Position numbers and translations under genes: made by a program | The notes under the pieces: model-generated | The model's input: only the letters and a program-made list of their open reading frames with translations | Told to the model about the DNA's origin: nothing | The model's database searches: none | From: Candidatus Magasanikiibacteriota bacterium | Lineage (GTDB): Bacteria > Patescibacteriota > Patescibacteriia > Magasanikbacterales > UBA922 | Assembly (NCBI GenBank): GCA_018650645.1 | Contig: JABIFP010000005.1 | Location: forward strand, 35,486-99,485 | Direction: 5' to 3' | DNA length: 64,000 nucleotides | Shown: one piece after another, positions 5,706-34,588 of the stretch | How the letters are laid out: each line of letters opens with the position of its first letter | Position numbering within the stretch: the first letter of the stretch is position 1

Positions 5706-5714
5706 ATAGATTGG

Positions 5715-6077: not shown

Positions 6078-6101
6078 ATAAATAGTTATTAGTACTGAAA
6101 G

Positions 6102-6683: not shown

Positions 6684-6695
6684 ATTGCTGTGTAA

Positions 6696-7292: not shown

Positions 7293-7307
7293 TCATTAAT
7301 CTGATAA

Positions 7308-10759: not shown

Positions 10760-11105
10760 TAACGGTGTTTATGATTTCGTCTACGGTGTGATCAGATTTT
10801 ACTAGGAAATCAACTACGTCATGTTCTAGCAGTTCTGCTTCTTTATTACTCAAGTTGGTGAGCATGATTACTTTTGCAGTTTTCCCCCATTTATCTTTGC
10901 GGAGCTCTTCTAACATTGAGATACCATCTTTTCTTGGCATGATAATATCAGCTAAAATGAGATCTGGATGCTCGGAAAGGGCTAGAGCCAATCCCTCTTC
11001 TCCGTTTTTTGCTAAAAGCACATTAAAACCTTCAGTTTTCAATTTTTCTGAAAGCAAGTGAGACTGAGGTGCCTCATCTTCTACCAAAAGAATTTTCTTA
11101 CTCAT
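10740..11105 (-). CDS. Stand-alone response regulator receiver protein
   Basis: KILLVEDE...DLILADIIMP...K receiver signature; overlaps the kinase gene start, indicating a co-transcribed pair. Confidence 0.85.
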   Translation of the reverse strand: MSKKILLVEDEAPQSHLLSEKLKTEGFNVLLAKNGEEGLALALSEHPDLILADIIMPRKDGISMLEELRKDKWGKTAKVIMLTNLSNKEAELLEHDVVDFLVKSDHTVDEIINTVIEKVSE

Positions 11106-14713: not shown

Positions 14714-15256
14714 TTATTTGAGATATACACCATTGTTCCCATCAGCAGAAGGAGGAAGGGGAGAAAAGGCATTAATTCCTCTGTTTGATGGATCAGGGTT
14801 TGGATGTTGTTCTTTTTGTATTTCGATATAGTCACCGCTTCGTTTTTCGTCTCCGGTAGCCAGAGTAAAGGCAAGTAGTGTGAGGGAGTAGGCACTGAGG
14901 ACAACGGCCATACCAATTACACCGTTTCTAACGGTCTTTTTTCCGGTATCAACTCGTTCTTGGTTCCCTTGTGCGGTCATAATCATGTATCCCCCAAAGA
15001 TAATATAAGAGAGAACAATAATACCCAAAAATCCGAGAGCCAGGCGAATAATAAAGGCCGCAACCGCTCTAGGGTCAGTTGGCCGCTCAAATCCGGCCCC
15101 GTCGTCACCGGCAGTTGCCTGCAGTTGCCGCGAGAGGTCGTCTGTATAGCTTCCTTGTGCGTGAATTGGTGCAAGTGGGGTAAATATACCAAAACACAGT
15201 GCAATGCTCAGCAAAAGGGTAGTAATGCGTCTCATAGGTGGTATTATCCTCCCCAT
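14714..15256 (-). CDS. TrbC/VirB2-like pilin-fold protein, paralog 1 (C-terminal Pro/Asn-rich tail)
   Basis: Signal peptide, then the shared module ...FIIRLALGFLGIIVLSYIIFGGYMIMTAQGNQERVDTGKKTVRNGVIGMAVVLSAYSLTLLAF (two TM helices). Confidence 0.7.
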   Translation of the reverse strand: MGRIIPPMRRITTLLLSIALCFGIFTPLAPIHAQGSYTDDLSRQLQATAGDDGAGFERPTDPRAVAAFIIRLALGFLGIIVLSYIIFGGYMIMTAQGNQERVDTGKKTVRNGVIGMAVVLSAYSLTLLAFTLATGDEKRSGDYIEIQKEQHPNPDPSNRGINAFSPLPPSADGNNGVYLK

Positions 15257-15699
15257 TCATCAAAAAGAGTGTCATACGTTTCGCCATCAGGGGTAGTTTG
15301 GCGAATTTGTTCATTTCTGTCTAAACTAGTTTGTGTTATTTTTCCAATGAGTAGGGTAATAGAGTAGGCTCCAAGTACTACGATGAGCCCAATAACAGCG
15401 GTTCTGATGGTTGTTTGCGCTTTTTCTACCTTAGCTTCTTCACCCTTTGCGGTTGCCCACCAAAATCCAGCCATTACCATGAGGATAGTGAATCCGATAC
15501 CTACAACGCTGAGGCCGATTTTGATAACAGAAGTAATGATTTCTTGCGGATCTGCAGAACCGTCAACACCCGCTGTTTGCTCAGAGGCTTTTACTTGTCC
15601 AGAGATTTGTTGGCCAAGAGACTGTTGGGCAAGCGCCGGTGAGGGCAACATGACCAGTAGTGCAAGTGCGGCAGAGATTGTGAGGAAGAGTTTTTTCAT
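15244..15699 (-). CDS. TrbC/VirB2-like pilin-fold protein, paralog 2
   Basis: Signal peptide plus the module VIKIGLSVVGIGFTILMVMAGFWWATAKGEEAKVEKAQTTIRTAVIGLIVVLGAYSITLLIG. Confidence 0.75.
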   Translation of the reverse strand: MKKLFLTISAALALLVMLPSPALAQQSLGQQISGQVKASEQTAGVDGSADPQEIITSVIKIGLSVVGIGFTILMVMAGFWWATAKGEEAKVEKAQTTIRTAVIGLIVVLGAYSITLLIGKITQTSLDRNEQIRQTTPDGETYDTLFDEWGG

Positions 15700-15710
15700 A
15701 GCTGTTTTTT

Positions 15711-16316
15711 TTATCTGCAGAGACCTGCACGAACTTCAGAATATGATGCTGTGCCTACACTTTCTAATCTCACCTGACCTTCACATGCATCTTGAGCTAG
15801 TGCAGGATCTACACCTGTAGTGGCAAATTTTCTACAGTCAACATTGTTGTTTGGCGGACATACCTCGCAACAACCCACCATTTCTCCTCCCGCCTGTTCT
15901 GCCGCTCCGCCACCGGTAGGTTGCCCACCAGCGGTTCGTTCTACAATTCTTGGGACAACAAAGTTGGTAATTGAGTATGAACCAACGGTAATAATTAATC
16001 CAATAACTGCCGTACGCAAAATTCCTTGCGCCTTTTCTACAGCAGATGAGTCCCCGCGTGCATTCATCCAAATGAACCCAGCATAAATGGTGAGGAGTAA
16101 GAAAATCGTTCCCACAAAAGACAGTGCGATCTTAATGACGGAACCAATCGTCTGCGCCAGTGTTGTGTCATTTGTTGCGCCGCTGTATCCCCCCTGTGTT
16201 GCGGCACCTGTGGCGAGTTTTCTACCCAAATCGATTGCTTGCGCATCTACTACAAGGAGGAGGGCCGTAAGTGTTCCTGCTGCACCAGCAAGAGCGAGAA
16301 TTTGTTTCTTATTCAT
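15711..16316 (-). CDS. TrbC/VirB2-like pilin-fold protein, paralog 3, with C-terminal Cys-rich extension
   Basis: Module VIKIALSFVGTIFLLLTIYAGFIWMNARGDSSAVEKAQGILRTAVIGLIITVGSYSITNFVV followed by a tail containing CCEVCPPNNNVDC...C...C. Confidence 0.75.
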   Translation of the reverse strand: MNKKQILALAGAAGTLTALLLVVDAQAIDLGRKLATGAATQGGYSGATNDTTLAQTIGSVIKIALSFVGTIFLLLTIYAGFIWMNARGDSSAVEKAQGILRTAVIGLIITVGSYSITNFVVPRIVERTAGGQPTGGGAAEQAGGEMVGCCEVCPPNNNVDCRKFATTGVDPALAQDACEGQVRLESVGTASYSEVRAGLCR

Positions 16317-16328
16317 AATGTTGCAACA

Positions 16329-16703
16329 TTAGCCGGCAGCTTCAAGCCGTGAAGTAATAAGCGTGGTAATTGCAAATGCGCTCAGCACAACAACAATACC
16401 AATAAGTGAATTTGAAATAATTTTCTTTGCTTTATCTACCTGCGCTTCTTCTCCTCGTGCGGTCATCCAAAGGTATCCAGCGTAAATCATGAGGAGTAAA
16501 AAGATAAGTCCAACGGTGGTGAGGAAGGTGTTAATAACAGTTCCTACAATTACGTCTGGGCTTTCTTGTTGTACACCCGCTTGTCCAGCAGATCGCTTTA
16601 ACAGGGAAGAGGCATTATTCAAATTCCCTTGTGCTAACACTGGCGCAAACATCAGTGTTGTCAGCATAAGTGAAAGAGCAATCACTTTCAGTTTTTTCAT
16701 CAT
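16329..16703 (-). CDS. TrbC/VirB2-like pilin-fold protein, paralog 4 (minimal form)
   Basis: Signal peptide plus VINTFLTTVGLIFLLLMIYAGYLWMTARGEEAQVDKAKKIISNSLIGIVVVLSAFAITTLI. Confidence 0.75.
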   Translation of the reverse strand: MMKKLKVIALSLMLTTLMFAPVLAQGNLNNASSLLKRSAGQAGVQQESPDVIVGTVINTFLTTVGLIFLLLMIYAGYLWMTARGEEAQVDKAKKIISNSLIGIVVVLSAFAITTLITSRLEAAG

Positions 16704-16718
16704 ATAGGGATGTTAAAA

Positions 16719-17315
16719 TTATCCTCCGCAGCGAGCATCGCAGCTTGCTCCGTCAAGATTTGGAACCCAAACACGTGGATGTGATCGAGTATCATCTTGA
16801 GCATCTAAATCATTTGCAATTTGTTGACAGTTTGTCTCAGTATCTAATCGGCAGGCCATAATATCTGGGCCAGTTTCAATAACGCAGCAACCAAGTGCTG
16901 CATCACCAACTTGTCCAGCTGCTGGTGGTGGGGTAGAGCCTGAGCGGTCAATTAATCTTGAAGTAATAAGCGTTGTAATGGCATAGGCACTTACAACAAT
17001 ACTGATACCAATGACGGCAGCAGTAATGGTGCTTTTTGCTTTTTCTACTTGTGCTTCTTCTCCACGGGCAGTCATCCAGAGGAATCCTCCATAGACCATA
17101 AGGACTAGGAAGATAATACCAACAGCGCTGAGGAACAGTTTGATAAGCACCCCACTACTTGTAGCAAGGTCAGTTGTTTCAAGTCCCGTTGGTTCTGTTA
17201 CGGTATTTAAAAATCGAGTGGAATCACCTATTTTGAGCTGCGCTGCTGAAGCTGAAGATGGAAGCAGGAAGGCTGCCAGTAAAAGTGTGAGAATGAGTGA
17301 TTTCCAGAATTTCAT
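16719..17315 (-). CDS. TrbC/VirB2-like pilin-fold protein, paralog 5, with C-terminal Cys-rich extension
   Basis: LIKLFLSAVGIIFLVLMVYGGFLWMTARGEEAQVEKAKSTITAAVIGISIVVSAYAITTLI followed by a tail containing CCVIETGPDIMAC...C...C.ARC; start placed at internal MKFWKS. Confidence 0.75.
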   Translation of the reverse strand: MKFWKSLILTLLLAAFLLPSSASAAQLKIGDSTRFLNTVTEPTGLETTDLATSSGVLIKLFLSAVGIIFLVLMVYGGFLWMTARGEEAQVEKAKSTITAAVIGISIVVSAYAITTLITSRLIDRSGSTPPPAAGQVGDAALGCCVIETGPDIMACRLDTETNCQQIANDLDAQDDTRSHPRVWVPNLDGASCDARCGG

Positions 17316-17338
17316 AAAGGTGTTGGCAATAAAAAGGT

Positions 17339-17932
17339 TTACCCAATACATTGATAGAAAATATCTAAGCAGTTGACTTCACAATCAACGTCGTCATTAC
17401 ATTCAGGTACACAGGCTTCGTAGGGTGTATTACAGCTTAAATATTTTGGTTTGGTAACGCATTTCAAATATTCGGGACCTCGTGTAATTCTTTGACAAGA
17501 ATCATTAGCACCACACGCTTGAGAGGCAAGGCTATCGCAACTTGCTGAAGAATTGGCAACGGCTCCACCACCTCCACCAACAGAGTTAAAGACAAAACTC
17601 GTAATTGCATATGCACCAAGGACTAAGATAAGTCCAATGATTGCAGCAATGATAGTGTCTTTTGCTTTTGTAACCAGTTCTTCTTTTCCATGAGCAGTCA
17701 TCCAAAGGAATCCTCCATAAATCATCAGTACAAAGAAAACGACACCAATAACAGAAAGGGCAGTACCAACAATGGCACCCGTAAGAGTTGGTAAATCTTT
17801 TCCGTAAGCTGCAAGTCCTGATCGATTTGCTGTAGCATCAAGACCATAGTTTCCGGCAGCGAGTGCTGGAGCTACGGTGATTGGAAGCGCTAGGGTGCTT
17901 ACGGCTAGAGTATAAAAAAGTTTCTTAAGCAT
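17339..17932 (-). CDS. TrbC/VirB2-like pilin-fold protein, paralog 6, with C-terminal Cys-rich extension
   Basis: IVGTALSVIGVVFFVLMIYGGFLWMTAHGKEELVTKAKDTIIAAIIGLILVLGAYAITSFV followed by a ~80-aa tail with 14 Cys. Confidence 0.75.
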   Translation of the reverse strand: MLKKLFYTLAVSTLALPITVAPALAAGNYGLDATANRSGLAAYGKDLPTLTGAIVGTALSVIGVVFFVLMIYGGFLWMTAHGKEELVTKAKDTIIAAIIGLILVLGAYAITSFVFNSVGGGGGAVANSSASCDSLASQACGANDSCQRITRGPEYLKCVTKPKYLSCNTPYEACVPECNDDVDCEVNCLDIFYQCIG

Positions 17933-17940
17933 AGGGAATA

Positions 17941-18672
17941 TTAAGGTTGATCAGGAACAATATCTAGTGGTGCGGGGTTGTTATTGAGAATGTCATCTTC
18001 CCTGTCATTGTCATTGGGTATCCGATCTTCAACATTTCCAACCTCCGCATCAAGGCCTAAATCAAGATCAGAATTACGAAGTACGCATCGTTCATCGCTA
18101 CACATTAGGGCATCACCACCTTGCGGACCAATACAATCAGAATCTTGTGCACAAGCAACTCCCAAAATCGATTTACATTGTCCTGCATCACAATAAGAAT
18201 CACTATCAGGACAGTCAAAGTCTGTACTACAGGCCGTTATGGGTGGATTTGTGCTTCCTGCCCCTCCACTTGGCGTCCCCGCACTATTAAACACTAAATT
18301 CGTTACCGCATACGCCACTAAAATAACCACTACACCAATGATCGCTGCCGTTACAGATTCTTTTGCTTTATTAATGAGTGTTTCGTCTCCTCTTGCGGTC
18401 ATCCAGATAAATCCGGCGTATACTATTATGATAAAGAAGAGTACGCCAAGCAGTGAAAGCGCGTTGGCTATAATTCTTCCGGCTAGTTGCAAGAGTGCTG
18501 GGCCATTTTTTTCATTAATTGATTTGTCTGCAAGTTCTGCGGTTGCTACTGTTTCTCTTAATCCTGCGGCTGGATTTGATTGCACTGCAGAAACGGTCAT
18601 TGGCAAAAGTAATGCAAGACCGCATACACTTAGCAGCAATAATCGAGTAAAACTATGCAGGCGTAAGAACAT
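17941..18672 (-). CDS. TrbC/VirB2-like pilin-fold protein, paralog 7, with C-terminal Cys/Asp-rich extension
   Basis: IIANALSLLGVLFFIIIVYAGFIWMTARGDETLINKAKESVTAAIIGVVVILVAYAVTNLV followed by CSTDFDCPDSDSYCDAGQC...; start placed at internal MFLRLHSF (ATG confirmed at 18670-18672). Confidence 0.75.
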   Translation of the reverse strand: MFLRLHSFTRLLLLSVCGLALLLPMTVSAVQSNPAAGLRETVATAELADKSINEKNGPALLQLAGRIIANALSLLGVLFFIIIVYAGFIWMTARGDETLINKAKESVTAAIIGVVVILVAYAVTNLVFNSAGTPSGGAGSTNPPITACSTDFDCPDSDSYCDAGQCKSILGVACAQDSDCIGPQGGDALMCSDERCVLRNSDLDLGLDAEVGNVEDRIPNDNDREDDILNNNPAPLDIVPDQP

Positions 18673-18673
18673 A

Positions 18674-19039
18674 CTAATATCTATACGGGACTCCCGTTGT
18701 TGCTTCAAATAAGGCACCAGAAACAAATTGTGTGATTGCAAATGCAGCAAGAACAACTCCAAGACCAATAGCCGCAGCTTGTATAGTTCCCTTTGCTTTA
18801 TCAATAGCTTCTGAATTTCCTTGACTCGTCATCCACTGAAAACCGGCTTTGATGATGAGAGACACAAAGATAATACCGAGTAAACCGAGTGCCACATTGA
18901 TAATAGAAACGGCGGTAACGCGTACATCTCTTGATCCTAAACCTGTGGCAGCCCCGTATTCAAGGCCGATGTCTTGCGCAGAAGCGGCAACTGGGAGTGC
19001 TACAAATGCGGCGCAAATTGTCCAAAACGAATATTTCAT
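18674..19039 (-). CDS. TrbC/VirB2-like pilin-fold protein, paralog 8
   Basis: IINVALGLLGIIFVSLIIKAGFQWMTSQGNSEAIDKAKGTIQAAAIGLGVVLAAFAITQFV; start placed at internal MKYSFW (ATG at 19037-19039). Confidence 0.7.
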   Translation of the reverse strand: MKYSFWTICAAFVALPVAASAQDIGLEYGAATGLGSRDVRVTAVSIINVALGLLGIIFVSLIIKAGFQWMTSQGNSEAIDKAKGTIQAAAIGLGVVLAAFAITQFVSGALFEATTGVPYRY

Positions 19040-19099
19040 AGAGCTATTACTACAGGTGTGCACGGAATGCACAGTTGTAGGAACACCTGAAAGCCCGAA

Positions 19100-19120
19100 G
19101 GGGCAGGAAGTTCCTGCCCC
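19100..19120 (-). promoter_or_regulatory. Stable GC hairpin GGGGCAGGA-agt-TCCTGCCCC inside the pilin array (between paralogs 9 and 8)
   Basis: Perfect 9-bp stem; the only long intergenic gap (95 bp) in an otherwise tightly packed array; no strong T tract follows on the transcribed strand. Confidence 0.45.
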
Positions 19121-19134
19121 GCGAACGAGTTTCA

Positions 19135-19578
19135 CTATGCTGGATCAAATCCTGCAGTATTGGTTGCAGACCCGAGTGCGTTGATAACGAATCGAGTAAT
19201 AGCCCAAGCTGAAAGAATAATCGCAAGCCCGACAATACCAGAGAAGATAAGCTTTCGCGCTTCTCCAACTTTGTCTTCAGATCCACCAGATGTCATCCAC
19301 TTGAAGCCACCGATAAGAACGACGACTACAGCTACGATACCGAGGAGTGAGAGTGATACGTTGATAATTTTTGAAGCCGTAGTACGGAGATCTTGTTTAC
19401 CAAGAGCAATTCCGTCAGCATCATTATCGATTGGTTCAAGCCCCAAGGGGTCCTCAGGATTAAACTCACCTGGTTGTAACGCTTGTGACATAGATGGAAC
19501 CATGAGTGCCACCATTGCAAAAGCTGCAACAATAGCGATAATTCCACGATGGTGTGAGAGTTTAGCTAGTAAGTACAT
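19135..19578 (-). CDS. TrbC/VirB2-like pilin-fold protein, paralog 9
   Basis: IINVSLSLLGIVAVVVVLIGGFKWMTSGGSEDKVGEARKLIFSGIVGLAIILSAWAITRFV; ATG at 19576-19578. Confidence 0.7.
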   Translation of the reverse strand: MYLLAKLSHHRGIIAIVAAFAMVALMVPSMSQALQPGEFNPEDPLGLEPIDNDADGIALGKQDLRTTASKIINVSLSLLGIVAVVVVLIGGFKWMTSGGSEDKVGEARKLIFSGIVGLAIILSAWAITRFVINALGSATNTAGFDPA

Positions 19579-19706
19579 ATGTCTCACCCCCTTTCCGCAT
19601 GAAGATGTTCGACATAACCGGTCATATCGACCAGACCAAAGCGCAATATTTGTGCGTTGGGCCGGGCGATACGCTGCTAAGTGGAACAGTTTATTGAATA
19701 ATAAAC

Positions 19707-20123
19707 TTACTTGCCAGTAAGTCCTTTAATAACCAAGCTAAGTATAGCATAGGCCCCAAAAACGATAAAGAGCCCAAGCGCTGAGTAGATCATTGCATGC
19801 CATCCTTTTTTTACTTGCTCTGCAGAACCGGCTGATGTGAGCCACATAAAGCCTCCATAAATGAAGACAAGCAGAGTAAGCGACCCAACAAGTCCGAGTG
19901 CGCTTTTGATAACGCGTGCTGCTAGTTCGTTAATTGGAGCTGTGACATCTTTATCTTTTACTGCCTCTCTACTTATTCCGCGGGGGTTGTCTTTTGTTCC
20001 GCCAATTGGGTTGACGAGTTCCCCTCCAGACACTGTTCCACCTGCTGCGAATAATTGCAGCGGTAAAAACAGGCTTATCATAAGTGGTAGTGCCAGAAGC
20101 ATTGTACGTGATCTTTTTTTCAT
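19707..20123 (-). CDS. TrbC/VirB2-like pilin-fold protein, paralog 10
   Basis: VIKSALGLVGSLTLLVFIYGGFMWLTSAGSAEQVKKGWHAMIYSALGLFIVFGAYAILSLV. Confidence 0.7.
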   Translation of the reverse strand: MKKRSRTMLLALPLMISLFLPLQLFAAGGTVSGGELVNPIGGTKDNPRGISREAVKDKDVTAPINELAARVIKSALGLVGSLTLLVFIYGGFMWLTSAGSAEQVKKGWHAMIYSALGLFIVFGAYAILSLVIKGLTGK

Positions 20124-20124
20124 A

Positions 20125-21195
20125 TTACACGAACCAAGAAGTTAGCGCGTCAGTTACTTTTCTAAAGTCGAATTCTTTACTCACGCCAAGCGTATCAAGA
20201 ATAAATCCTACCAGCATATATGCGCTGAAAGAGATGGCAATACCAATCACTGCGGCTCCTAATATACTTTTTCCTTTCTTTACTTTGTCAGGGGAACCGA
20301 ATGATAAAATGATAGTAACACCACCGTAGATAAAGAAGGCAAGTGCTATGGTTCCGATAACGCCAAAGAGGATACGTGCAGCATTGATTAGGAGTTGTAC
20401 TAAATCATTTACATTTCTGCAGCCGCTATAACTAAATGCGCAATCGGGGATTGGTCCATCATAATTTGTTGGTGCACCGCGGACAGGTTTTCCGCCAACG
20501 TCGCCCCGGCATTCTGGGCAGGTTTGTACGCAGGCTTGGTGATTTTTTTGGAGGCACTCCTGTCTTGAAACAGTATTGAGAGGGGCATCTTCTCCTGATC
20601 CCAGGGGTGCCCCGATTTCGGGGCATTCAGGAACAAGCGAGCTATCAGACTGTGCCGTCATAAATACTTCACAATCGTCTTTAGTTTTAAAATTATCTTC
20701 AGGTTTTGCAACACGGCCAGCTAAACAGTCAGCAAATTTTGTTTTGCATGCATCGTTGTAGCCATCTGGAAGTGTACCGCCACGTAGGGAACAGTTTTGT
20801 GTTTCTAATTCTGCTCTACAGTGGAGTGCCTTTATGGGTGCAGATTGAAAGACTCTTCCACTTACAATCGGACTAATTCGTGCAGGAGTATAGTTTCCTG
20901 CTGGTCTAGCTTGTGTGCGGGTAAAGCCGGCACCACAGTCCTGAATTTTACAATTATTGTATCGAGGTAGTGTACAGATTTGTGCGCAGGCTGGTTGGTG
21001 ACGGCCTTCAGTGGTGTCAAACTGAATACAAATATTTCTTTTTTCGTCGAGGTCTTCAAAGACACAGGATTCTGTGTATCTATCGTCATCTACATCACCT
21101 GGATCATATCCATAGTCTGCATTTGCTGCAGCGGGAAAGATACATAATAATGAAAAAAGAGATAGGTAAAGGAATTGTTTCAGTATGTATCGCAT
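20125..21195 (-). CDS. Secreted protein: ~250-aa N-terminal Cys-rich domain (~24 Cys) fused to a C-terminal TrbC/VirB2-like two-TM module (paralog 11)
   Basis: Signal peptide MRYILKQFLYLSLFSLLCIFPAAANA; C-terminus ...LINAARILFGVIGTIALAFFIYGGVTIILSFGSPDKVKKGKSILGAAVIGIAISFSAYMLVGFI. Confidence 0.7.
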   Translation of the reverse strand: MRYILKQFLYLSLFSLLCIFPAAANADYGYDPGDVDDDRYTESCVFEDLDEKRNICIQFDTTEGRHQPACAQICTLPRYNNCKIQDCGAGFTRTQARPAGNYTPARISPIVSGRVFQSAPIKALHCRAELETQNCSLRGGTLPDGYNDACKTKFADCLAGRVAKPEDNFKTKDDCEVFMTAQSDSSLVPECPEIGAPLGSGEDAPLNTVSRQECLQKNHQACVQTCPECRGDVGGKPVRGAPTNYDGPIPDCAFSYSGCRNVNDLVQLLINAARILFGVIGTIALAFFIYGGVTIILSFGSPDKVKKGKSILGAAVIGIAISFSAYMLVGFILDTLGVSKEFDFRKVTDALTSWFV

Positions 21196-21196
21196 A

Positions 21197-22558
21197 TTAC
21201 ATCGTTTGCTGCATGCGTCTTGCAGCTTGATTTAATAAGCTCGCATCTCTATCTTCCTGATCAACATCATCTGGCACAGGAAGAAGATGCGCTTCAATCA
21301 GTGCTTCAAAAATATTTTCTGCAACGTCAGCGTTACTTCCTTGGTACCAGTTTCTTGCAGTAAGTAAGTTTACAACAAAGGGTTCAAGTAGTGGGTCTTC
21401 TAAACTTTCAGCAATATGTAATCTATATGGAGAAGGTTGGCGTGTTGCTGCAGTATATGTTTTTACATTTTCTTGTGATCCAATAAATCTAAGGAAGTCC
21501 CAGGCATAATCAGGCTCAGTTGTTTTTTTCACAACAGTTTCTACCCAATAGTTTGCGATATTTGTGGGGTTAGCAGGATCAAGTTGTGGAAGTGCAACAA
21601 CATCTAAATTTAATTGTGGATTTGCTGCGCGGATTCGTCCAGCATCAAAGGCGTATCCAATATAGAACACACTTCGGCCTCGTACAAATGCATCAAATGC
21701 ATTTTCTTGACGGTTGTTCCAGGTGTATGTGTCTCTGTCTTGCTGCGCAAAGTCGGTATAAAAACGAAGTACTTCTAATGCTGGCGCTTCTTCTGAACGT
21801 GTTCCACCTGTGGCAAAGCTGACAATACCATTTTCTGCTACACGCAATTTGCGTTGCATCATAAGTGTTGCCAAAATGTCTGGGGCATTATCTATATTAG
21901 TTGCTGTTCCCATTGCTACTCCAGATTGCACTATATCGTCTTGAGAATTAAATCGAGTTGATTTTTTCACAGCGTCTACAAATTCGTCCCATGTTGCTGG
22001 GGGAGTCGCAACACCCGCTCTGTCGAGCAAATCTTTATTATAATAAAGTGCTAAAGAATCCATGGCTAAAGGAAGACCATAAATTGCACCATTTCTGACA
22101 ACATCTGCGCCTACTGCGCTTACATAGTTTTGCCGAATGTTTGAAGCACTTGGCATGGCATTAATCTCTGGTTCTACCACAGTTTCTTTTACGTATTGTC
22201 CTTTTACATATACGTTAGAAACGCGAGTTGCTCTGGGCATTTCGAGTAGCCGTGGTTGATATTTACTGATATCTTTTGCATGTACAGAAATAATATCTGG
22301 TGCAACATCATCCGCGAGCGCATTTACAAACTTGTCTTCAAATTCTTCAAATCGCACTTGTCTAATATTTATTTGTACCTGCGGCTTTCTAGCTGAATAA
22401 GCAGAAGCGAATTGTCTGAGCTGCGATACGTTTCCAAAAACAGTCCAATAATCAAGCGTAACGCGCTGTGTGCGTTGCACTTCGGCAGCTGTTGGTCCTT
22501 TACATCCAAATCCAAAGAGAAGGAGGAGTGATAGGGTAAAAACTAAATAGCGTTTCAT
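21197..22558 (-). CDS. ABC transporter extracellular solute-binding lipoprotein (family 1, sugar-type)
   Basis: Lipobox LLLLFGFGCKG and the overall SBP_bac_1-like architecture; start placed at MKRYLV (ATG at 22556-22558). Confidence 0.7.
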   Translation of the reverse strand: MKRYLVFTLSLLLLFGFGCKGPTAAEVQRTQRVTLDYWTVFGNVSQLRQFASAYSARKPQVQINIRQVRFEEFEDKFVNALADDVAPDIISVHAKDISKYQPRLLEMPRATRVSNVYVKGQYVKETVVEPEINAMPSASNIRQNYVSAVGADVVRNGAIYGLPLAMDSLALYYNKDLLDRAGVATPPATWDEFVDAVKKSTRFNSQDDIVQSGVAMGTATNIDNAPDILATLMMQRKLRVAENGIVSFATGGTRSEEAPALEVLRFYTDFAQQDRDTYTWNNRQENAFDAFVRGRSVFYIGYAFDAGRIRAANPQLNLDVVALPQLDPANPTNIANYWVETVVKKTTEPDYAWDFLRFIGSQENVKTYTAATRQPSPYRLHIAESLEDPLLEPFVVNLLTARNWYQGSNADVAENIFEALIEAHLLPVPDDVDQEDRDASLLNQAARRMQQTM

Positions 22559-22571
22559 AGGGTACGGGCTA

Positions 22572-23354
22572 TTAAGTAAACGCATTTTCAATAATGAATT
22601 GAACAATCGCGTAAGAGCCTAGAACGATTAAGATACCAAGAGCTCCCCAATATAAAATTTCTTTTGCTTCGTTTTCTCTTTGTGCATTCCCTGTTGCTAC
22701 CATCCAGAGAATTCCTGCGTATACCATGACTACCAGCGCAATTGTTCCAATGATACCCATGGCTGTTTTAATTACACGACCGATGAGTTTTTGTGGAGAG
22801 GTGCCTGGAAGTTGGTCGAGGGCTTTTAAAGACGCTCCAAGGTTTCCGTCTGATGTTGCGAAGAGAGACTTGTCGCCGTCAGCAGACGTACCATACCACT
22901 GACAATTTGTGTAAATTGATCGATTGAGTGTTCCTTTTTCTTCTGGCTTTATGCTTTGGCCTGATTCGGCATTATCAAGCTGATTCCCCACGCTATCATC
23001 GCTACAGTTTGATTGGTTTAAGGAAGGCACCAGCTTAGGTTCGTTGGCACTTGTGCGTTCTTCGTTAGTTACTGTGCAATAACATCCTTCTTTTTTATCA
23101 GCACAGGCTTTATATTCATTTCCTTTCTTATAATTTTGTAGGCAAGTAAGGACTTTATCAATGGTAATATTTGTTGTTGCATTACACTGAGAAATTCCAG
23201 CTTGTAAACACTGTTTTTCTCTAGAAGACAGTCCTCCTAAATCTAATTTTCCAGAGCTGATACTTTGCGCCATCACATCAACCGGAAACAGCAAAGCAAC
23301 ACAAAAAAACATGATTGCTATAAAAAATGTATGTGACAAGCGTTTCAAAAACAT
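22572..23354 (-). CDS. Secreted protein: N-terminal Cys-rich domain fused to a C-terminal TrbC/VirB2-like two-TM module (paralog 12)
   Basis: Signal peptide; ~13 Cys in the N-terminal half; C-terminus VIKTAMGIIGTIALVVMVYAGILWMVATGNAQRENEAKEILYWGALGILIVLGSYAIVQFI. Confidence 0.7.
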   Translation of the reverse strand: MFLKRLSHTFFIAIMFFCVALLFPVDVMAQSISSGKLDLGGLSSREKQCLQAGISQCNATTNITIDKVLTCLQNYKKGNEYKACADKKEGCYCTVTNEERTSANEPKLVPSLNQSNCSDDSVGNQLDNAESGQSIKPEEKGTLNRSIYTNCQWYGTSADGDKSLFATSDGNLGASLKALDQLPGTSPQKLIGRVIKTAMGIIGTIALVVMVYAGILWMVATGNAQRENEAKEILYWGALGILIVLGSYAIVQFIIENAFT

Positions 23355-23355
23355 A

Positions 23356-24225
23356 CTAACAGTGAGAAGAAATAATTTCTTTTAGTGCCGGGTCTTTTTG
23401 TGCAAAGTGAAGCGTTGCTGTGAGAAGTGCTCCTTTGTTTCCTGTGTCGAAGTACTGTCCATCATATTCATACGCAAGGAATTTTTTCTTGCGGGCCATT
23501 TCGTTTGCTGCATCCGCTACCCAAATCTCTCCATCTTTTCCGTTTCCTTGTTTTTCTAGCATCTTCCAGATGTCTTTGGTAAAGATGTAGCGCATGCCCC
23601 CAATAATAAGGCCGTGCGGAGAGGTATTTTTTTCTGCAGGTTTTTCTACAAATTTTTGTACTTTATACAATCTACTTTCTTTTTCCTGTTTAGCAAATAC
23701 GTTTCCGTATTTGGTCATTGCCGCGCGGTCCTCTATTCGTTGCACACCAATAACCGGCGCTTGATGCCTGTTATACACTTTCATGAGCTGCTTAATAACA
23801 GGTGTTTTAGCATCAATAATACTGTCTCCGTCAGAGAATGCGAACGGCTCATCGCCTACAAAATGGCGGGCACACAGAAGTGCATGTCCATTTCCAAGTG
23901 GTGCCGATTGGCGTGTGTAAAAAAATTGCACTTTACTTGTAAGATCGATAAGTGGCTGGAGTCGGTCTAGTTTTCCTTTGCTCTTTAAAAACGCTTCAAA
24001 ATCTTTGTTTCTGTCAAAGTGATCTTCAATAGCGCGTTTTTGAGAACTTGTGACAAAGATAATTTGCTCAATACCACTTTCTACCATTTCTTCAACAATA
24101 TATTGTAATACTGGCTTATCCAAAACGGGAAGCATTTCTTTTGGCATTGCCTTCGTTGCTGGCAGGAATCGTGTTCCAAGTCCTGCTACAACAATAACTC
24201 CTTTTCTTACTTTCTCTTTTGGCAT
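23356..24225 (-). CDS. galU: UTP--glucose-1-phosphate uridylyltransferase
   Basis: VIVVAGLGTRFLPATKAMPKEMLPV nucleotidyltransferase motif typical of GalU. Confidence 0.85.
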   Translation of the reverse strand: MPKEKVRKGVIVVAGLGTRFLPATKAMPKEMLPVLDKPVLQYIVEEMVESGIEQIIFVTSSQKRAIEDHFDRNKDFEAFLKSKGKLDRLQPLIDLTSKVQFFYTRQSAPLGNGHALLCARHFVGDEPFAFSDGDSIIDAKTPVIKQLMKVYNRHQAPVIGVQRIEDRAAMTKYGNVFAKQEKESRLYKVQKFVEKPAEKNTSPHGLIIGGMRYIFTKDIWKMLEKQGNGKDGEIWVADAANEMARKKKFLAYEYDGQYFDTGNKGALLTATLHFAQKDPALKEIISSHC

Positions 24226-25645: not shown

Positions 25646-25800
25646 AGCTAGATAAAAATGTACTAAAATTACGCGCGTACTATAACAAAATGGGGTTATC
25701 GTGTCAAGGGAAATACTGTTATTTGTTGCTCAGCAAACCTATCCGCAGAATTGTGTGGTCTGCGCTGAGTGAGTGTGATATACTTGTTGTAGAGAAAAAT

Positions 25801-26895
25801 ATGTATAAAACGGCTCAAAAAGTCTTATTTTTAGCACTATTGTGCTCGTTTTTGGGTATGAGTGTGTATTCTGTGCAGGCTGTTATGGAAGGGGGCGATT
25901 ATGAAATTTATGCGGACACCTTTTCTTCTATAGATGGCTCAGCTGTTGCTGGTGGAGGGTATCAAATATATCAAACAAGTGGTGAAGGGTACGCAGATAA
26001 TTATACGCAGGCAGTTACGGGGCAAATTACAGCATCGGGAACTCTGTTTGGCATCGATGAAGTAGTATATATAAGTGATGGCAGTACCACTACTCGATTC
26101 TTATATATAAATTTGGGCGGTGGAAACAGTGGATATTGCTATAACACAACTACCTTTAATCAATCTGGGCAGCCTTGCGTGAATAATCTTGTATTGATTG
26201 ATATTGGTGGCGGGTGTGATTTTGACCCGGTGTGTCTGGCAAATGCAACATATGATGCTATGGTAAGTTCTTCAGAGAAATTTCTAATGTCTGTTTCAAC
26301 CAGTACAAATGCCACAGTAAATTTGACCAATGCAAACCCTGATGCTACAGGGAATGTGGCAATTACAGATGAAGTGGCTGATGCAAACTACATAGTAAGT
26401 GGAATGACCATTAGCGGGGATAGTTATATATTAAAAGCAGGTTTTCAGGCGATGGAAAAGGGTTCGGTTACGATGACGCTAAGCACAAGCTCTCTTTCGT
26501 TTGGAACGCTGAGTGAGAGTACACTTACAACAAGCTCTATTATTGCTACAGTAACTTCAGATACCACTACAGGGTACGGAGTGACCGTTTCGGAAGATAC
26601 AAATTTATGTATTGGTGGAGTTAACTGTACGTTGGACGCGAATAATATTGATGACATTGTTGTAGCTCCAGTAGCGGCAGGTTCTGAAGGCTATGGTATG
26701 AAAACTTCAGGTGGTGCAGGACTTCTTGCGGCTGATACAGCGATTACAAGCGATGGAGTAGCTACAATAAACTCTGGAACAGATGTTACATCGCAGCAAA
26801 CGACCATACTTTTTAGTGTAGCAATCGATGCGGCTCAAACAATAGCCGGAGCATATTCACATACGGTGACAGTCACTGCAACAGCTAATCCATAG
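25801..26895 (+). CDS. Secreted Thr/Ser-rich cell-surface protein with a WxL-domain-like C-terminus
   Basis: Signal peptide (start at internal MYKTAQK); C-terminal ...AGAYSHTVTVTATANP resembles the WxL C-terminal motif (G.Y.G.LTWTL.DAP) of Firmicutes surface proteins. Confidence 0.45.
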   Translation: MYKTAQKVLFLALLCSFLGMSVYSVQAVMEGGDYEIYADTFSSIDGSAVAGGGYQIYQTSGEGYADNYTQAVTGQITASGTLFGIDEVVYISDGSTTTRFLYINLGGGNSGYCYNTTTFNQSGQPCVNNLVLIDIGGGCDFDPVCLANATYDAMVSSSEKFLMSVSTSTNATVNLTNANPDATGNVAITDEVADANYIVSGMTISGDSYILKAGFQAMEKGSVTMTLSTSSLSFGTLSESTLTTSSIIATVTSDTTTGYGVTVSEDTNLCIGGVNCTLDANNIDDIVVAPVAAGSEGYGMKTSGGAGLLAADTAITSDGVATINSGTDVTSQQTTILFSVAIDAAQTIAGAYSHTVTVTATANP

Positions 26896-26896
26896 T

Positions 26897-27736
26897 ATGT
26901 ATATTCGGCTCATGAGTTTACTTGCGCTTGCGCTCTTATTGCCGAGTAGCGTACTTGCGCTTACCGTTTCTCCGCCGCGCCAAACGGTGACGGTGGCTCC
27001 TGGGGAAACAGCAGAACTACCACTCTATGTAATAAATGAGGAGCGTGTTCCCGTTGTTATCAAAGGAGAAGTCGATGCATTTAGAATTGATCAGGAATCT
27101 GGAACGGCAATGTTTGGTCAGCCAGATAGGGCCAAAACATGGATTATTCCAAGGGAAAAAAAAGTTGTATTGCAACCAGGAGAGTCTGCAAGTCTAACAT
27201 TTGATGTGCGTATTCCAGAGGGCGCGTTGCCTGGGGCACATTATATGGGAGTGTTTGCAAGCGCAGCTGCGGGAGAGGGAAATGTGGGTGCAAAAGCTCG
27301 GATTGGATCGCTTGTATTTTTACATGTTGCGGGGGAAGTCCATGAAGAAGCGCGTATTGTTGATGTGTCTACAAAACAGTTTATTGTAAAAGAGAATACC
27401 GCAGAAGTATATATACGAGTAGAAAATTTGGGAGATATTCATATTATTCCAGAAGGAACCGTAACGCTTATTGGAGAAGAAACGCAGACACCGATTAATG
27501 TTTCGCAAGAAAAAGTGTTGGCAGATCACGCGCATACAATGGCGGTACCTGTGCCACTCGAGTTGCGGCATATCGGAAAACAAAAAGCGCGAGTTGCAGT
27601 AACGTATGGCGTAACGCAGCAACAATTATTTGAAGAAGTGACCTTTTATTATGTGCCGTTATGGCTGCGTTTTGCAGCAGGTGGAATATTTCTTCTATTA
27701 GTAATTGGAGCAAGTATATTTTTTACAAGAAAGTAG
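26897..27736 (+). CDS. Secreted protein with a C-terminal TM anchor, DUF916/DUF3324-like (WxL-locus partner type)
   Basis: Signal peptide, beta-rich ectodomain, single C-terminal TM helix (LWLRFAAGGIFLLLVIGASIFFTRK); lies adjacent to the WxL-like gene. Confidence 0.4.
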   Translation: MYIRLMSLLALALLLPSSVLALTVSPPRQTVTVAPGETAELPLYVINEERVPVVIKGEVDAFRIDQESGTAMFGQPDRAKTWIIPREKKVVLQPGESASLTFDVRIPEGALPGAHYMGVFASAAAGEGNVGAKARIGSLVFLHVAGEVHEEARIVDVSTKQFIVKENTAEVYIRVENLGDIHIIPEGTVTLIGEETQTPINVSQEKVLADHAHTMAVPVPLELRHIGKQKARVAVTYGVTQQQLFEEVTFYYVPLWLRFAAGGIFLLLVIGASIFFTRK

Positions 27737-27737
27737 T

Positions 27738-30041
27738 ATGAATCGCGGCAAGCTTGTAACAATTTTTTCTTTAGCACTCGCTTTGCCGGTGTTTATTGGC
27801 TTGTCAGTTGCGGGTGTTGCTCTTGCTGCTACTGTTGATGTAACGGCAACTGTTCCAGCACTCTGTGGAAATGGTGTAAAAGAAGGAGCCGAGGCGTGTG
27901 ATGGAGGAGATATTGGAACGACGTGTGGATTACAAGGATTTGATGCTGGTGCGATAAGTTGCAGTGGGACTTGTACGCTTGATGTGAGCGCCTGTACAAA
28001 TGATGATGGTGGAGCTGGAGCAATGGTACCGCCACCTGTTGTTAATCCTCCGGCACCAGATCCTGAACCAGAACCAGAGCCGGAACCTATAGATCCACCA
28101 GTAGAACCAGAACCAGAACCTGAACCTGTTGATCCACCTGCTGAACCGGAGCCTATTGATCCACCAGATCCAGATCCAGATGATCCACCAGCGCCAGATC
28201 CAGATCCTGCTGATCCACCTATAGAACCAGCGCCAGATAATGGAAACAACAATGCTCCACCGGCGATTATTCCAGTACCAGCACAGCCGCCTGTGGCACT
28301 CCCTCCGGTAAATAATGTTGTTGGGAATGCCGGCGGTGGTCTTGCACCAATTGATGAAAATTTGGTGCAAGGATTTGCATTTTGGGTTGGAAATCGTACC
28401 TTTAGTGTTGCGCCGCATCAAGGCAGGCTGACTTCACTAGCCGGAGACACTATTTCTATTGCTTCAAGGGTTGGGGCAGATCCAGCAGAAACTATTTTAG
28501 CGATTCGGATGGTAATTGGTCAGGATATTATCGTATTTAAAAAAGGAAATGATGGAAGTTGGTATACCGATGTAAAAATGCCAGCACCCGGGTCCTATAG
28601 AACGGTTATTGAAACAACACATAAGTCAGGGAAAGTAGAGCAGTTTGAGCTTATATTTGTGTCTGCTTCGTATGGACGAGTAACACAGTCTGGAAGTGGT
28701 GATCCTATTGCGTCTGCAAATGTGCAGCTGTTAGATAGTAACGCTGGTGGCCTGTGGGATGGAGGACCGTTTGGACAAGCAAACCCTATGGCGGCCTCAG
28801 AAAGTGGATATTATGGATATCTGGTACCAAATGGAACCTATCAGTTAATAGTTGAGCATGAAGGATATAAGCGCAGAGAAACACTAACGTTTGAAGTGCG
28901 CGATCATGTCATTAATAACAATTTAAAATTAATCGTAGAAGCTGCAGAACTTGCAGAGGTGCTCGATATATTTAATTCTGACGCGAGTGCTTCAGAAAAA
29001 ATTGCAGCATCAGTAAATGTAATTACCGGAGCTACCAAAGAAACATTGCTCGAAGCTGCAGAAACAATTACGGATGTTGCCAGAAAGATTGATGATGCCG
29101 CAGATAATCCGCAGGTTGAGGAAGTGACGCAAGAGGTTGTTGCCCCGGCTTTAGTAACAGTAGCTACGGCTGCGGTTGTGCCATCACTTTGGGGAACGGC
29201 GCTGCCACTACTCAGATACATTTTCTTGCAACCATTCTTACTCCTCGGTAGAAGAAAAAGAAAAGAGTGGGGAGTGGTATATAATTCACTTACCAAGTTA
29301 CCGATTGATCTTGCAACCATTCGTTTAATCGATGAGGCTACAGGAAAGATTAAGCAGTCAAGAGTAACAGATGCCGGAGGACGATACTTGTTTGTTGTGG
29401 AGCCTGGAGCGTATAAAATTGAAGTGATGAAGCAAGGGTTTACGTTTCCTACATCGGTGTTGCAGGGAATTTCGGCAGACGGAGAATTTTTGGATATTTA
29501 TCATGGTGAAGGCATTAAAGCCACAGCAGAAAAAATTGGTTTAACGCCAAATATTCCAGTCGATCCGGCAGGCAAACATAAAACACCAAGACGTATTGTC
29601 CGTGATAAATTTTTACGCGCATTGCAGCATACAATTTCTGTTGCGGGTGTGATTCTTTCTGGTGTTGCTTTGTATATTACTCCAACACTGACAACCAAAA
29701 TTATTTTGGGGGTAAATGTTGCTCTCTATCTTATCTTTATGCGATTTGTGAAGCCACCAAAACCATCCGGATGGGGGCTTGTGTCTGAGCGTGGAGGAAA
29801 AGAACTGAAAAATGCTGTAGTACGACTCTTTACGAAGGAATACAATAAGCTCGTTTCAACACAGGTAACAGATGCCAAAGGACGATACGCTTTTTTGGTG
29901 GGGCCGAATGATTATTATGTAAAAGTAAGTAAGCCGGGGTATCAAGAATTTAAGAGTGACGACATTGCGGTGAAAGGAAAGAAGGCGAGTTCAAAGGTGT
30001 TGAAGGAGAACATTGAGGTGGATAAGGAGGATAATAAATAA
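27738..30041 (+). CDS. Large cell-surface protein: signal peptide, Cys-rich repeat module, Pro/Glu-rich linker, three CarboxypepD_reg-like beta-sandwich repeats, C-terminal TM helices
   Basis: CGNGVKEGAEACDGGDIGTTCG...CSGTCTLDVSAC; PEPEPEP/DPP linker; GYYGYLVPNGTYQLIVEHEGY, GRYLFVVEPGAYKIEVMKQGF and GRYAFLVGPNDYYVKVSKPGYQE repeats. Confidence 0.7.
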   Translation: MNRGKLVTIFSLALALPVFIGLSVAGVALAATVDVTATVPALCGNGVKEGAEACDGGDIGTTCGLQGFDAGAISCSGTCTLDVSACTNDDGGAGAMVPPPVVNPPAPDPEPEPEPEPIDPPVEPEPEPEPVDPPAEPEPIDPPDPDPDDPPAPDPDPADPPIEPAPDNGNNNAPPAIIPVPAQPPVALPPVNNVVGNAGGGLAPIDENLVQGFAFWVGNRTFSVAPHQGRLTSLAGDTISIASRVGADPAETILAIRMVIGQDIIVFKKGNDGSWYTDVKMPAPGSYRTVIETTHKSGKVEQFELIFVSASYGRVTQSGSGDPIASANVQLLDSNAGGLWDGGPFGQANPMAASESGYYGYLVPNGTYQLIVEHEGYKRRETLTFEVRDHVINNNLKLIVEAAELAEVLDIFNSDASASEKIAASVNVITGATKETLLEAAETITDVARKIDDAADNPQVEEVTQEVVAPALVTVATAAVVPSLWGTALPLLRYIFLQPFLLLGRRKRKEWGVVYNSLTKLPIDLATIRLIDEATGKIKQSRVTDAGGRYLFVVEPGAYKIEVMKQGFTFPTSVLQGISADGEFLDIYHGEGIKATAEKIGLTPNIPVDPAGKHKTPRRIVRDKFLRALQHTISVAGVILSGVALYITPTLTTKIILGVNVALYLIFMRFVKPPKPSGWGLVSERGGKELKNAVVRLFTKEYNKLVSTQVTDAKGRYAFLVGPNDYYVKVSKPGYQEFKSDDIAVKGKKASSKVLKENIEVDKEDNK
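28045..28245 (+). repeat. Low-complexity tandem coding repeat (xDPP-xEPEPEP) inside the surface-protein gene
   Basis: Visible nucleotide periodicity ccagaaccagaacc / gatccacc; produces spurious GS-rich and W/R-rich ORFs on the opposite strand. Confidence 0.7.
29975..30028 (+). repeat. Direct repeat copy 1 (3' end of the surface-protein CDS, encodes ...SSKVLKENIEVDKE)
   Basis: ~85% identical to 31075..31130; the 42-bp core GAGTTCRAAGGTGTTGAARGARAAYATTGAGGTGGATAAGGA. Confidence 0.7.
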
Positions 30042-33572: not shown

Positions 33573-33618
33573 AAGTGATATCTGTGATATTACATGTGCA
33601 TCGCAATCGGGCGATTGA

Positions 33619-33990: not shown

Positions 33991-34125
33991 CCTACACGGC
34001 TGAAGATGAAAGGGGGAGGCGGCCAATGGCCGCAGGAGGGATGGGCGCTCGTAGGAGCGCCTTTTCTTTTTGCATTATTCTTTCTCTATGCTATTCTTTT
34101 CGCAGGATGTGACAGGGAGGAGAAG

Positions 34126-34548: not shown

Positions 34549-34561
34549 GCATCAACCAAAA

Positions 34562-34581
34562 GGGCGACCCTCGGGTCGCCC
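34562..34581 (-). terminator. Perfect GC hairpin GGGCGACCC-tc-GGGTCGCCC; likely terminator for the minus-strand 34589..35781 genes
   Basis: 9-bp perfect stem; a T-run (ttttggttg) follows on the minus strand. Confidence 0.5.
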
Positions 34582-34588
34582 TACCAAC

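Follow-up and report, generated by a model that had tools for sequence, protein, structure and literature searches.

What do two cysteine-rich proteins with a pilin-like membrane anchor do on either side of a sugar-type solute-binding protein (SBP)? The question is raised by a 64,000-nt stretch of a metagenome-assembled genome (MAG) of Candidatus Magasanikbacteria (Patescibacteria/Candidate Phyla Radiation, CPR), here called the window, in which positions 14714..24225 hold a tightly packed run of minus-strand genes: a galU-like gene, par12, the SBP gene, par11, and then ten more paralogs down to 14714 (par1 to par12 being the 12 pilin paralogs of the array; all coordinates given for this run are on the minus strand). 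The two proteins in question, par11 (20125..21195, 356 aa) and par12 (22572..23354, 260 aa), consist of an N-terminal cysteine-rich ectodomain, large in par11, and a VirB2-like pilin module. Each of the two has its own fixed, conserved place in an array of 12 genes of the Pfam family PF18895, and each has the same signal peptide and helical hairpin as the short paralogs. In our leading, though tentative, reading (rough probability 0.45, from sequence and gene order) they are displayed at the cell surface in low copy, as adaptors or adhesins that act together with the SBP.

Both open reading frames (ORFs) lie on the minus strand at the positions given in a preliminary description of the region, and both are called genes in public data, par11 being 100% identical to a Candidatus Magasanikbacteria protein and par12 having a 98% identical match. 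According to the ORF coordinates, gaps of 1 nt separate galU from par12, the SBP gene from par11 and par11 from par10, and 13 nt lie between par12 and the SBP gene. The galU-like gene (23356..24225), whose stop codon lies 1 nt before the start of par12, encodes a nucleotidyl transferase of 289 aa (Pfam NTP_transferase, 101.7 bits), and rpsR, ssb and rpsF are located upstream of it in the window.

The two-transmembrane (two-TM) module, which had been placed at the extreme C-terminus, was found there in both proteins: par11 has hydrophobic segments at aa 279-297 and aa 315-333, par12 at aa 201-219 and aa 237-255. It corresponds to Pfam PF18895 (T4SS_pilin; T4SS, type IV secretion system), a VirB2/TrbC-like family of the conjugation type, and was matched over aa 265-332 of par11 (20200..20403; 31.6 bits) and aa 186-254 of par12 (22593..22799; 30.3 bits), against a curated cut-off of 26.6 bits that every short paralog tested also exceeded. 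On the TrbC profile (PF04956), par12 scored 21.2 bits, under the cut-off of 27.9, and par10 passed. The 12 paralog modules align with gaps at their ends only, leaving 73 fully occupied core columns. The C-terminal module of par11 and par12 is thus the same as in the ten short paralogs, as had been proposed; the preliminary description would have given up this assignment if the module failed to align with the array under profile methods, and since it scores above the PF18895 threshold and aligns with the array, no such failure was seen. A signal peptide followed by two hydrophobic helices with a short charged loop, the arrangement that marks the PF18895 superfamily, is present in both proteins (the loops, charged and basic, read SFGSPDKVKKGK in par11 and ATGNAQRENEAK in par12). 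Members of that superfamily are also small, hairpin-only proteins when mature, which par11 and par12 are not; the other ten paralogs are nearer this norm. In AlphaFold2 (AF2) models the hairpin helices of par11 span aa 262-297 and 302-336 with a predicted local distance difference test score (pLDDT) of 73-79, and the helical hairpin of par12 has a pLDDT of 67-77.

The label "pilin-like" stands insofar as the module is from a pilin family, but this is a family of conjugation-type, VirB2/TrbC-like T4SS pilins, not of type IV pilus pilins. The latter identity was ruled out: the signal peptides are of the ordinary Sec type and not of class III, the hydrophobic pair is C-terminal, and no type IV pilus pilin family of Pfam was matched. 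Searches of the full par11 and par12 sequences against Pfam and NCBIfam returned nothing besides the pilin module, and no sequence-level match of the modules to solved pilins was found among the PDB sequences. The profile of all 12 modules retrieved from the PDB sequences only the designed "Pizza" beta-propellers through a 20-residue G-x-W-x-T-x-x-G pattern, which was rejected as spurious, with the single domains insignificant.

The architecture of the two proteins had been called reversed. The loop of VirB2-type pilins points into the pilus lumen; at the opposite end the N- and C-termini are adjacent, near enough to each other to be cyclised (PMC12037004). Topologically, par11 and par12 are not reversed, as both hairpin ends would emerge at the same outer side, and because of this N-terminal and C-terminal extensions would be equivalent displays. 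A domain swap was likewise ruled out: every paralog has a segment between the signal peptide and helix 1, and it is this segment that is enlarged into the ectodomain.

Each protein begins, as stated earlier, with a hydrophobic segment resembling a signal peptide. In par11 the signal peptide comprises aa 1-26 (21118..21195; hydrophobic segment aa 4-26) and in par12 aa 1-29 (23268..23354; hydrophobic segment aa 10-28); the cleavage sites, taken from a reading of the sequence, are of the A-x-A type and probably fall after ANA in par11 (between AANA and D) and after VMA in par12 (between VMA and Q). The ectodomains that follow occupy aa 27-264 of par11 (20404..21117) and aa 30-185 of par12 (22800..23267), hydrophilic stretches of about 236-238 and about 155-156 aa, in agreement with the 150-250 aa given in the preliminary description. 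Its cysteine counts of about 24 and 13 were too high: par11 has 19 cysteines (18 past the signal peptide) and par12 has 9 (8 past it). The motifs that it quoted are present (CVQTCPEC, aa 222-229, and CAFSYSGC, aa 252-259, in par11; CYCTVT, aa 91-96, in par12).

Both ectodomains are orphans, without a Pfam match at E-values up to 10 or a match among the PDB sequences; a match to a known enzyme or inhibitor family, which would have counted against the preliminary description, was thus not seen there. They are also unrelated to each other (hhalign probability 21%, with the signal peptides alone aligned), and since the two modules are only 29% identical, a recent duplication that gave rise to par11 and par12 is ruled out. 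The two are not each other's nearest paralogs; identity between paralog modules ranges from 21 to 62% in the array, in which the par11 module is the most divergent (21-34% to the other 11).

Searched without the hairpin against 1.84 billion representative proteins (HMMER), the par11 ectodomain gave only 10 matches at E<=1e-3, 9 of which are pilin-family proteins carrying PF18895 at the C-terminus; no free-standing copy was found. With PF18895 kept in these nine relatives, ectodomain and hairpin form a stable fusion, and the ectodomain is lineage-restricted. The remaining match, P0019, is weak (E 2.5e-4) and falls on four repeated stretches of a large surface protein (1152 aa) that has immunoglobulin (Ig)-like and dockerin domains; a shared cysteine-rich repeat or chance may account for it. 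Among 193 N-terminal ectodomains pooled from related loci, an iterative search gathered 30 relatives of the par11 ectodomain, and nearly all members of this par11 family are the first gene after the SBP. The only columns conserved to at least 70% over the 30 sequences form a membrane-proximal neck, P242..Y245.G247..P250.C252-A-F....C259 (20419..20472, including CAFSYSGC), several columns of which are invariant in another par11 alignment. In the par12 ectodomain six cysteines are invariant across 7 homologs. AF2 models from the shallow alignments available (6 sequences for par11, 7 for par12) had a mean pLDDT of 55 and a predicted template modelling score (pTM) below 0.3, the hairpin alone reaching about 70-79; at this confidence, matches of the models in a fold search would be meaningless.

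Five N-x-S/T sequons (NAT, NIT, NQS, NCS, NRS) also lie within the roughly 155 aa of the par12 ectodomain (22800..23267). The pilin gene SEML1_0024 of Southlakia ML1 adjoins SEML1_0023, which encodes an STT3/PglB-like oligosaccharyltransferase. Glycosylation of the par12 pilin is a possibility suggested by these sequons.

Between par12 and par11 lies the SBP gene (21197..22558, 453 aa counted from an MKRY start; the longest ORF starts at 22606). Its identification as a sugar-type lipoprotein was confirmed: it matches Pfam SBP_bac_8 (85.3 bits) and SBP_bac_1 (78.2 bits), both over threshold, and has a signal peptide followed by a conserved, lipobox-like cysteine (G-F-G-C). The best PDB relatives are sugar SBPs (4qrz, 7e-14), and the solved relatives bind sugars or glycosyl-glycerols. 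A relaxed lipobox test (a hydrophobic stretch, then Cys) was passed by 60 of the 78 SBP orthologs, mostly with G-x-G-C, and the remainder have an uncleaved TM anchor; a strict lipobox pattern caught just 13 of the 78. Across 74 orthologs, with a median identity of 34%, 64 columns are conserved to at least 85%, many of them Trp, Tyr or Phe, or Asp, Asn or Gln, as expected of a carbohydrate-type site or a protein interface. At the level of regular expressions, no ORF with the EAA motif of MalF/G-type permeases was found in the window and 83 related loci, and motifs resembling ATP-binding cassette (ABC) ATPases were found in just 4 loci of this set. The SBP gene therefore does not stand beside permease and ATPase genes of its own. 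Canonical family-1 carbohydrate SBPs (MalE, UgpB, SmoF-like) belong to the same SBP_bac_1/SBP_bac_8 fold family, and a lipoprotein tether is typical of those of monoderms; they have an adjacent permease and ATPase, whereas here the constant genomic partner is the pilin array.

The SBP loci were collected in a scan of one genome per species, in which the 80 best of 553 relatives were retained; they come from Magasanikbacteria, Uhrbacteria, Doudnabacteria, Andersenbacteria, Terrybacteria and Paceibacteria, from MAGs labelled Saccharibacteria, and from others. Together with the window, the loci (L001-L083) make up 84 sequences, the ORFs of which were scanned with a hidden Markov model (HMM) built from the 12 modules. 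Pilin-module genes were found in 78 of the 84 sequences. The co-occurrence with the SBP in related genomes, which the preliminary description had suggested checking, proved strongly conserved, as the downstream neighbour of the SBP is a pilin-module gene in 66 of the 71 testable loci. A galU ortholog is present in 53 of 78 SBP loci (in 42 of 70 as the immediate upstream neighbour), and it stays directly upstream across very distant lineages of Patescibacteria while the remaining neighbours change. When the ORFs were clustered, only three families were widely conserved, namely the SBP, the pilin module and galU; other neighbours are housekeeping genes (gyrA, recA, ftsH, leuS, comM). Genes of VirB4, VirB6 or VirB3/PrgI were found neither in the 64-kb window nor among the conserved neighbours within 10 kb (83 loci and window).

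The association was also approached from the opposite side, by fetching metagenome loci with an alignment of orthologs of the short paralog par4 as the probe. The SBP was present in 15 of the 15 arrays found in this way whose head lay inside the retrieved DNA. In 27 of 28 metagenome loci the downstream neighbour of the SBP is a member with an N-terminal ectodomain, and the 28 loci share one order, in which galU is followed by N-ectodomain members (one to three), the SBP, further N-ectodomain members (one or two), short members, members with a C-terminal tail, and short members again. Pilin genes on both sides of the SBP occur in only 6 of 70 loci of the genome set; in other lineages the SBP comes directly after galU, at the head of the array. 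An SBP bracketed by pilin genes is thus typical of the clade related to Magasanikbacteria. In this clade, arrays reach 12-14 pilin-module genes (metagenome loci L104 and L127), the published range for Patescibacteria being 2-11.

Closest to the window are three related contigs (L001, L002 and L003) in which the order S6-SSB-S18-galU-par12-SBP-par11-array recurs, one of them truncated to SBP-par11-array. In L001 and L003 each of the 12 paralogs has a single ortholog at the corresponding position (1:1), and no recent duplicates were seen. The SBP is 88% identical to its counterpart in L001, as are the modules of par11 and par12, the par11 ectodomain is 55% and the par12 ectodomain 39% identical; the SBP and the hairpins are conserved and the ectodomains diverge fast.

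Large ectodomains on a pilin stalk had been considered unusual, which did not hold: about 40% of the members in 62 arrays (those in which four or more members follow the SBP) are extended, with 237 short members, 79 with an N-terminal ectodomain, 67 with a C-terminal tail and 16 with both. The classes differ in position, with a median array rank of 2 for N-ectodomain, 4 for short and 5 for C-tail members; extended and short members differ in relative rank with a Mann-Whitney p of 5e-13, the loci being treated as independent of shared ancestry. Cysteine makes up 5.7% of N-terminal ectodomains, compared with 0.9% in neighbouring proteins, and its number is even in 76 of 92 N-terminal ectodomains and 74 of 82 C-terminal tails, an even number being the signature of extracellular disulfide pairs.

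In the window, the C-terminal tails of paralogs 3, 5, 6 and 7 (6, 6, 10 and 8 cysteines; 15711..18804) mirror par11 and par12, and such members stand mid-array in dozens of related loci. Matches of the par7 tail to the EB-module, nodulin and WAP families were below threshold and were discarded as generic cysteine-pattern noise. Some loci have giant first members past the SBP, 900-1000 aa long with about 60 cysteines before the hairpin, or members of 600-760 aa with long cysteine-rich C-terminal parts (L038, 2356..5163; L039, 7655..10606; L062; also L057, L072, L075 and L080).

VirB2-like pilin arrays of Patescibacteria have already been published (Quinonero-Coronel et al. 2025, PMC12102498), with an average paralog identity of 25% and a maximum of 54% (PMC12102498); Southlakia epibionticum ML1 has an essential six-gene array, SEML1_0014-0019, inside a T4SS cluster (Wang et al. 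2023, PMC10633639), and a "secreted protein array" was described in TM7x (McLean et al. 2020, PMC7427843). Like the locus in the window, these are tandem, same-strand arrays of CPR genomes, and their two-helix PF18895/TrbC-like products have signal peptides and differ strongly from one another; the 12 same-strand genes found here agree with the definition of such an array (at least two tandem modules, low identity between paralogs). Unlike the published arrays, the one in the window has 12 members (up to 14 in relatives) and does not lie beside virB4 or virB6, a family-1 SBP heads or interrupts it, galU lies upstream, and about 40% of the members carry stereotyped cysteine-rich ectodomains. 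The SBP, galU or cysteine-rich ectodomain members are not mentioned in PMC12102498, PMC10633639 or PMC7427843, no family-1 SBP is listed in the ML1 annotation table, and no paper joining VirB2/TrbC of Patescibacteria or CPR with solute-binding or cysteine-rich proteins was found in the literature searched, the coverage of which is incomplete. SBPs heading arrays, the stereotyped order and the orphan ectodomains were thus not found in that literature; par11 and par12 are unexceptional members of an array whose kind is known, in a conserved, SBP-headed variant that is not described there.

The pilins of classical conjugative systems (VirB2/TrbC/TraA of F, T, H and R388 pili) share with par11 and par12 the signal peptide, the helix-loop-helix hairpin, the basic loop and the Pfam relationship. 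They are about 70-120 aa long without an extra domain, are encoded in a T4SS operon and assemble with phospholipid, whereas here the organism is a monoderm, disulfide-rich additions of 150-240 aa are present, and no assembly machine is encoded nearby. In classical systems VirB5 is the tip adhesin (PMC12857230). The proposed likeness to VirB5 or minor pilins would consist in a low-copy, surface-exposed subunit for target contact that is encoded beside major pilin genes; VirB5 is a soluble helical protein without a VirB2 hairpin and has no sequence similarity to par11 or par12, so that the likeness is functional only. The roles suggested in the preliminary description, as tip subunits or minor pilins or as tethered binding proteins that feed the SBP, are neither contradicted nor demonstrated by these observations.

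If par11 and par12 are adaptor or adhesin subunits, they would be exported by the Sec pathway and their signal peptides cleaved, which would leave the hairpin in the membrane with the basic loop in the cytoplasm and the ectodomain outside the cell. Should the hairpins polymerise like those of VirB2 pilins, N-terminal and C-terminal extensions would both decorate the exterior of the fibre. Because a domain of 150-240 aa on every subunit would not pack, the bulky members would then most likely be present in low copy, at the base or the tip or as adaptors, in a role comparable to that of VirB5 or minor pilins. The variable distal parts of the ectodomains might contact the host surface, the conserved neck of par11 could be a docking element (for the shaft or for the membrane-tethered SBP) or a processing element, and the SBP may bind a conserved carbohydrate-like ligand at the contact site.

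Several points weigh against this interpretation. Polymerisation of PF18895 proteins of Patescibacteria is presumed by analogy with VirB2 pilins, and with no VirB4 or VirB6 gene nearby the link of the array to a T4SS machine is indirect. The AF2 confidence is too low for any fold-based function of par11 or par12. The association of SBP and pilin genes is a genomic one; with galU and housekeeping genes as neighbours, some of the conserved gene order may not reflect a functional link. The set of loci is biased toward this SBP subfamily, and the rank and parity statistics are uncorrected for shared ancestry of the loci.

The strongest alternative, in itself rather doubtful, holds that the hairpin is only a membrane anchor and that there is no fibre, the array and a tethered SBP forming a bindosome-like capture platform from which host sugar or glycoconjugate is handed to an ABC importer encoded elsewhere. 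Such a platform would account for an SBP that is conserved at array heads and tethered by a lipid or a TM helix, for the strong conservation of its residues of putative ligand-contact type, for the lack of a T4SS ATPase gene nearby, and for bulky domains on about 40% of the members, which are hard to pack in a fibre. It sits less well with a module of the VirB2/TrbC pilin superfamily, with the Saccharibacteria array inside an essential T4SS cluster, and with the lack of an EAA-motif permease in the 84 sequences searched, and the several short, "plain" members in their stereotyped order are in line with a polymer that has accessory subunits. In the archaeal bindosome of Sulfolobus, sugar-binding proteins with pilin-like signal peptides are assembled by the Bas system. 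It resembles the present locus in that sugar-type SBPs are tied to pilin-like assembly modules on the surface of an organism without an outer membrane; there, the SBP itself carries the class III signal peptide, whereas here the SBP is anchored as a lipoprotein or by a TM helix and the VirB2-type modules are on separate proteins.

Alternatively, the adjacency of SBP and galU is a conserved gene order without functional coupling, par11 and par12 being decorated minor pilins or adhesins and the SBP serving ordinary sugar uptake. We consider this unlikely. The housekeeping neighbourhood (rpsF, ssb, rpsR, gyrA, recA, ftsH) and the essential pilin array of Southlakia ML1, which is without a family-1 SBP, speak for it, but the pairing of SBP and array holds at about 30% SBP identity in very distant lineages with other neighbours changing, the genes abut within 1-13 nt, genes of the par11 family keep their place directly after the SBP, and sugar SBP genes are normally found beside permease genes, which are absent here.

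More improbable still is a role of the cysteine-rich domains as cargo or pro-domains, in which cleavage at the neck would set them free as secreted, disulfide-rich effectors or toxins (compare the speculation in PMC7427843). The neck motif, directly ahead of helix 1, might serve for such cleavage, terminal processing is known from T4SS pilins (PMC12037004), and the ectodomains evolve fast; yet the hairpin is kept at the C-terminus in 9 of 9 pilin-family relatives of the par11 ectodomain with no free-standing copy found, the ectodomains resemble no toxin or enzyme family in Pfam or among the PDB sequences, and the C-terminal tails of other paralogs would need a second, different processing logic. 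Very improbable, finally, are paralogs that act as interchangeable variants in antigenic or host-range variation, as proposed for VirB2 of Bartonella and Anaplasma and suggested for Patescibacteria (PMC12102498), since the low module identity (21-62%) and the fast divergence of the ectodomains that speak for it are outweighed by the 1:1 orthologs of each paralog in L001 and L003, the stereotyped order of architectural classes in dozens of loci and the absence of recent duplicates, with which distinct fixed roles, and not a variable repertoire, are in agreement.

Beyond the adaptor or adhesin reading, a wider interpretation would be a Patescibacteria-wide surface organelle of SBP and VirB2-like array that takes material from the host: hairpins would form a fibre or sheath at the contact site, ectodomains would recognise the host envelope, and the transporter-less SBP would capture a host-derived glycoconjugate or lipid head group, which would be passed on for uptake or for the building of a lipid-containing pilus. 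The solved relatives of the SBP include UgpB-like and SmoF-like binders, and galU together with a synthase of the monogalactosyldiacylglycerol (MGDG) type would tie the locus to glycolipid metabolism. Taken as a whole we regard this as speculative and unlikely to be correct in full; if true, it would be a so far undescribed device. How CPR bacteria/Patescibacteria, which account for much of bacterial diversity and are without most biosynthetic pathways, attach to hosts and extract nutrients is an open question. The T4SS-like genes and VirB2-like arrays are essential in the one species tested, and their function in Patescibacteria has been called "completely unknown" (PMC11665869). The operon offers handles for this question, namely an expressible, soluble SBP for ligand screens, a neck motif to mutate, and variable ectodomains as candidates for host specificity, and the stereotyped 1:1 orthology argues against the published idea of antigenic variation and favours a heteromeric structure.

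The remaining members of the array follow par11 in the order par10 to par1. The short VirB2-like pilin par10 (19707..20123, 138 aa) scores above the cut-off on both PF18895 (32.9 bits) and TrbC (31.7 bits). Two short paralogs, par9 (longest ORF 19135..19587; its L001 ortholog is 89% identical) and par8 (longest ORF 18674..19135, the real start probably being an internal MKYSFW), were assigned by the module HMM. They are followed by par7 (17941..18804; PF18895 29.6 bits), par6 (17339..17932; module HMM and ortholog comparison) and par5 (16719..17351; PF18895 31.7 bits), each a pilin module with a C-terminal cysteine-rich tail recognised from its cysteine positions. The short paralog par4 (16329..16703, 124 aa; PF18895 34.4 bits) precedes the fourth tailed member, par3 (15711..16316), which like the short par2 (15244..15699) and the last paralog, par1 (14714..15256), was assigned by the module HMM.

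The best sigma-70-like promoter match (25679..25707, minus strand; 11 of 12 hexamer matches and an extended -10 TG) lies upstream of rpsF and is weak evidence for a possible start there of a long transcript rpsF-ssb-rpsR-galU-par12-SBP-par11. Counts of promoter-like sites and terminators in the region do not exceed those in shuffled sequences, and the site near rpsF is the only strong match. Rfam and tRNA scans of the window returned two tRNAs only, neither of them within the locus.

Convergent to the last pilin gene is the gene of an MGDG-synthase/GT28-type glycolipid glycosyltransferase (13563..14672, plus strand), which is also present in L003 (13891..15000) and in 7 loci in total, so that galU and the MGDG-type synthase flank the array with enzymes of UDP-sugar and glycolipid metabolism. 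VirB2-type pili contain stoichiometric lipid, and because of this the pairing of a glycolipid enzyme with the array may not be accidental. Divergent from rpsF, a conserved gene cluster for secreted or surface proteins (25690..30041, plus strand; orthologs in L001, 1126..5378, and L003, 307..2235) encodes one protein of 401 aa without a Pfam match, an Ig-like one of 279 aa that has a TM helix at its C-terminus, and one of 778 aa containing CarboxypepD_reg/PEGA/prealbumin-like repeats. Exported PEGA/prealbumin-like proteins (SEML1_0004 and SEML1_0005) also flank the essential T4SS cluster of Southlakia ML1.

Farther away in the window, two regions (about 33400..34600 and about 41700..45100) are crowded with oddly composed, overlapping ORFs on the two strands, next to a tRNA-Leu (42757..42843), with no Rfam family match. 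An apparent chemotaxis cluster on the minus strand (1794..9194), recognised by reading the translations, comprises CheD-, CheC-, CheA-, CheB-, CheY- and CheW-like proteins and a methyl-accepting protein, and is followed by a two-component pair (9242..11105). A PilB-type ATPase (46256..47986; T2SSE, 394 bits) is also encoded in the window of this small CPR genome.

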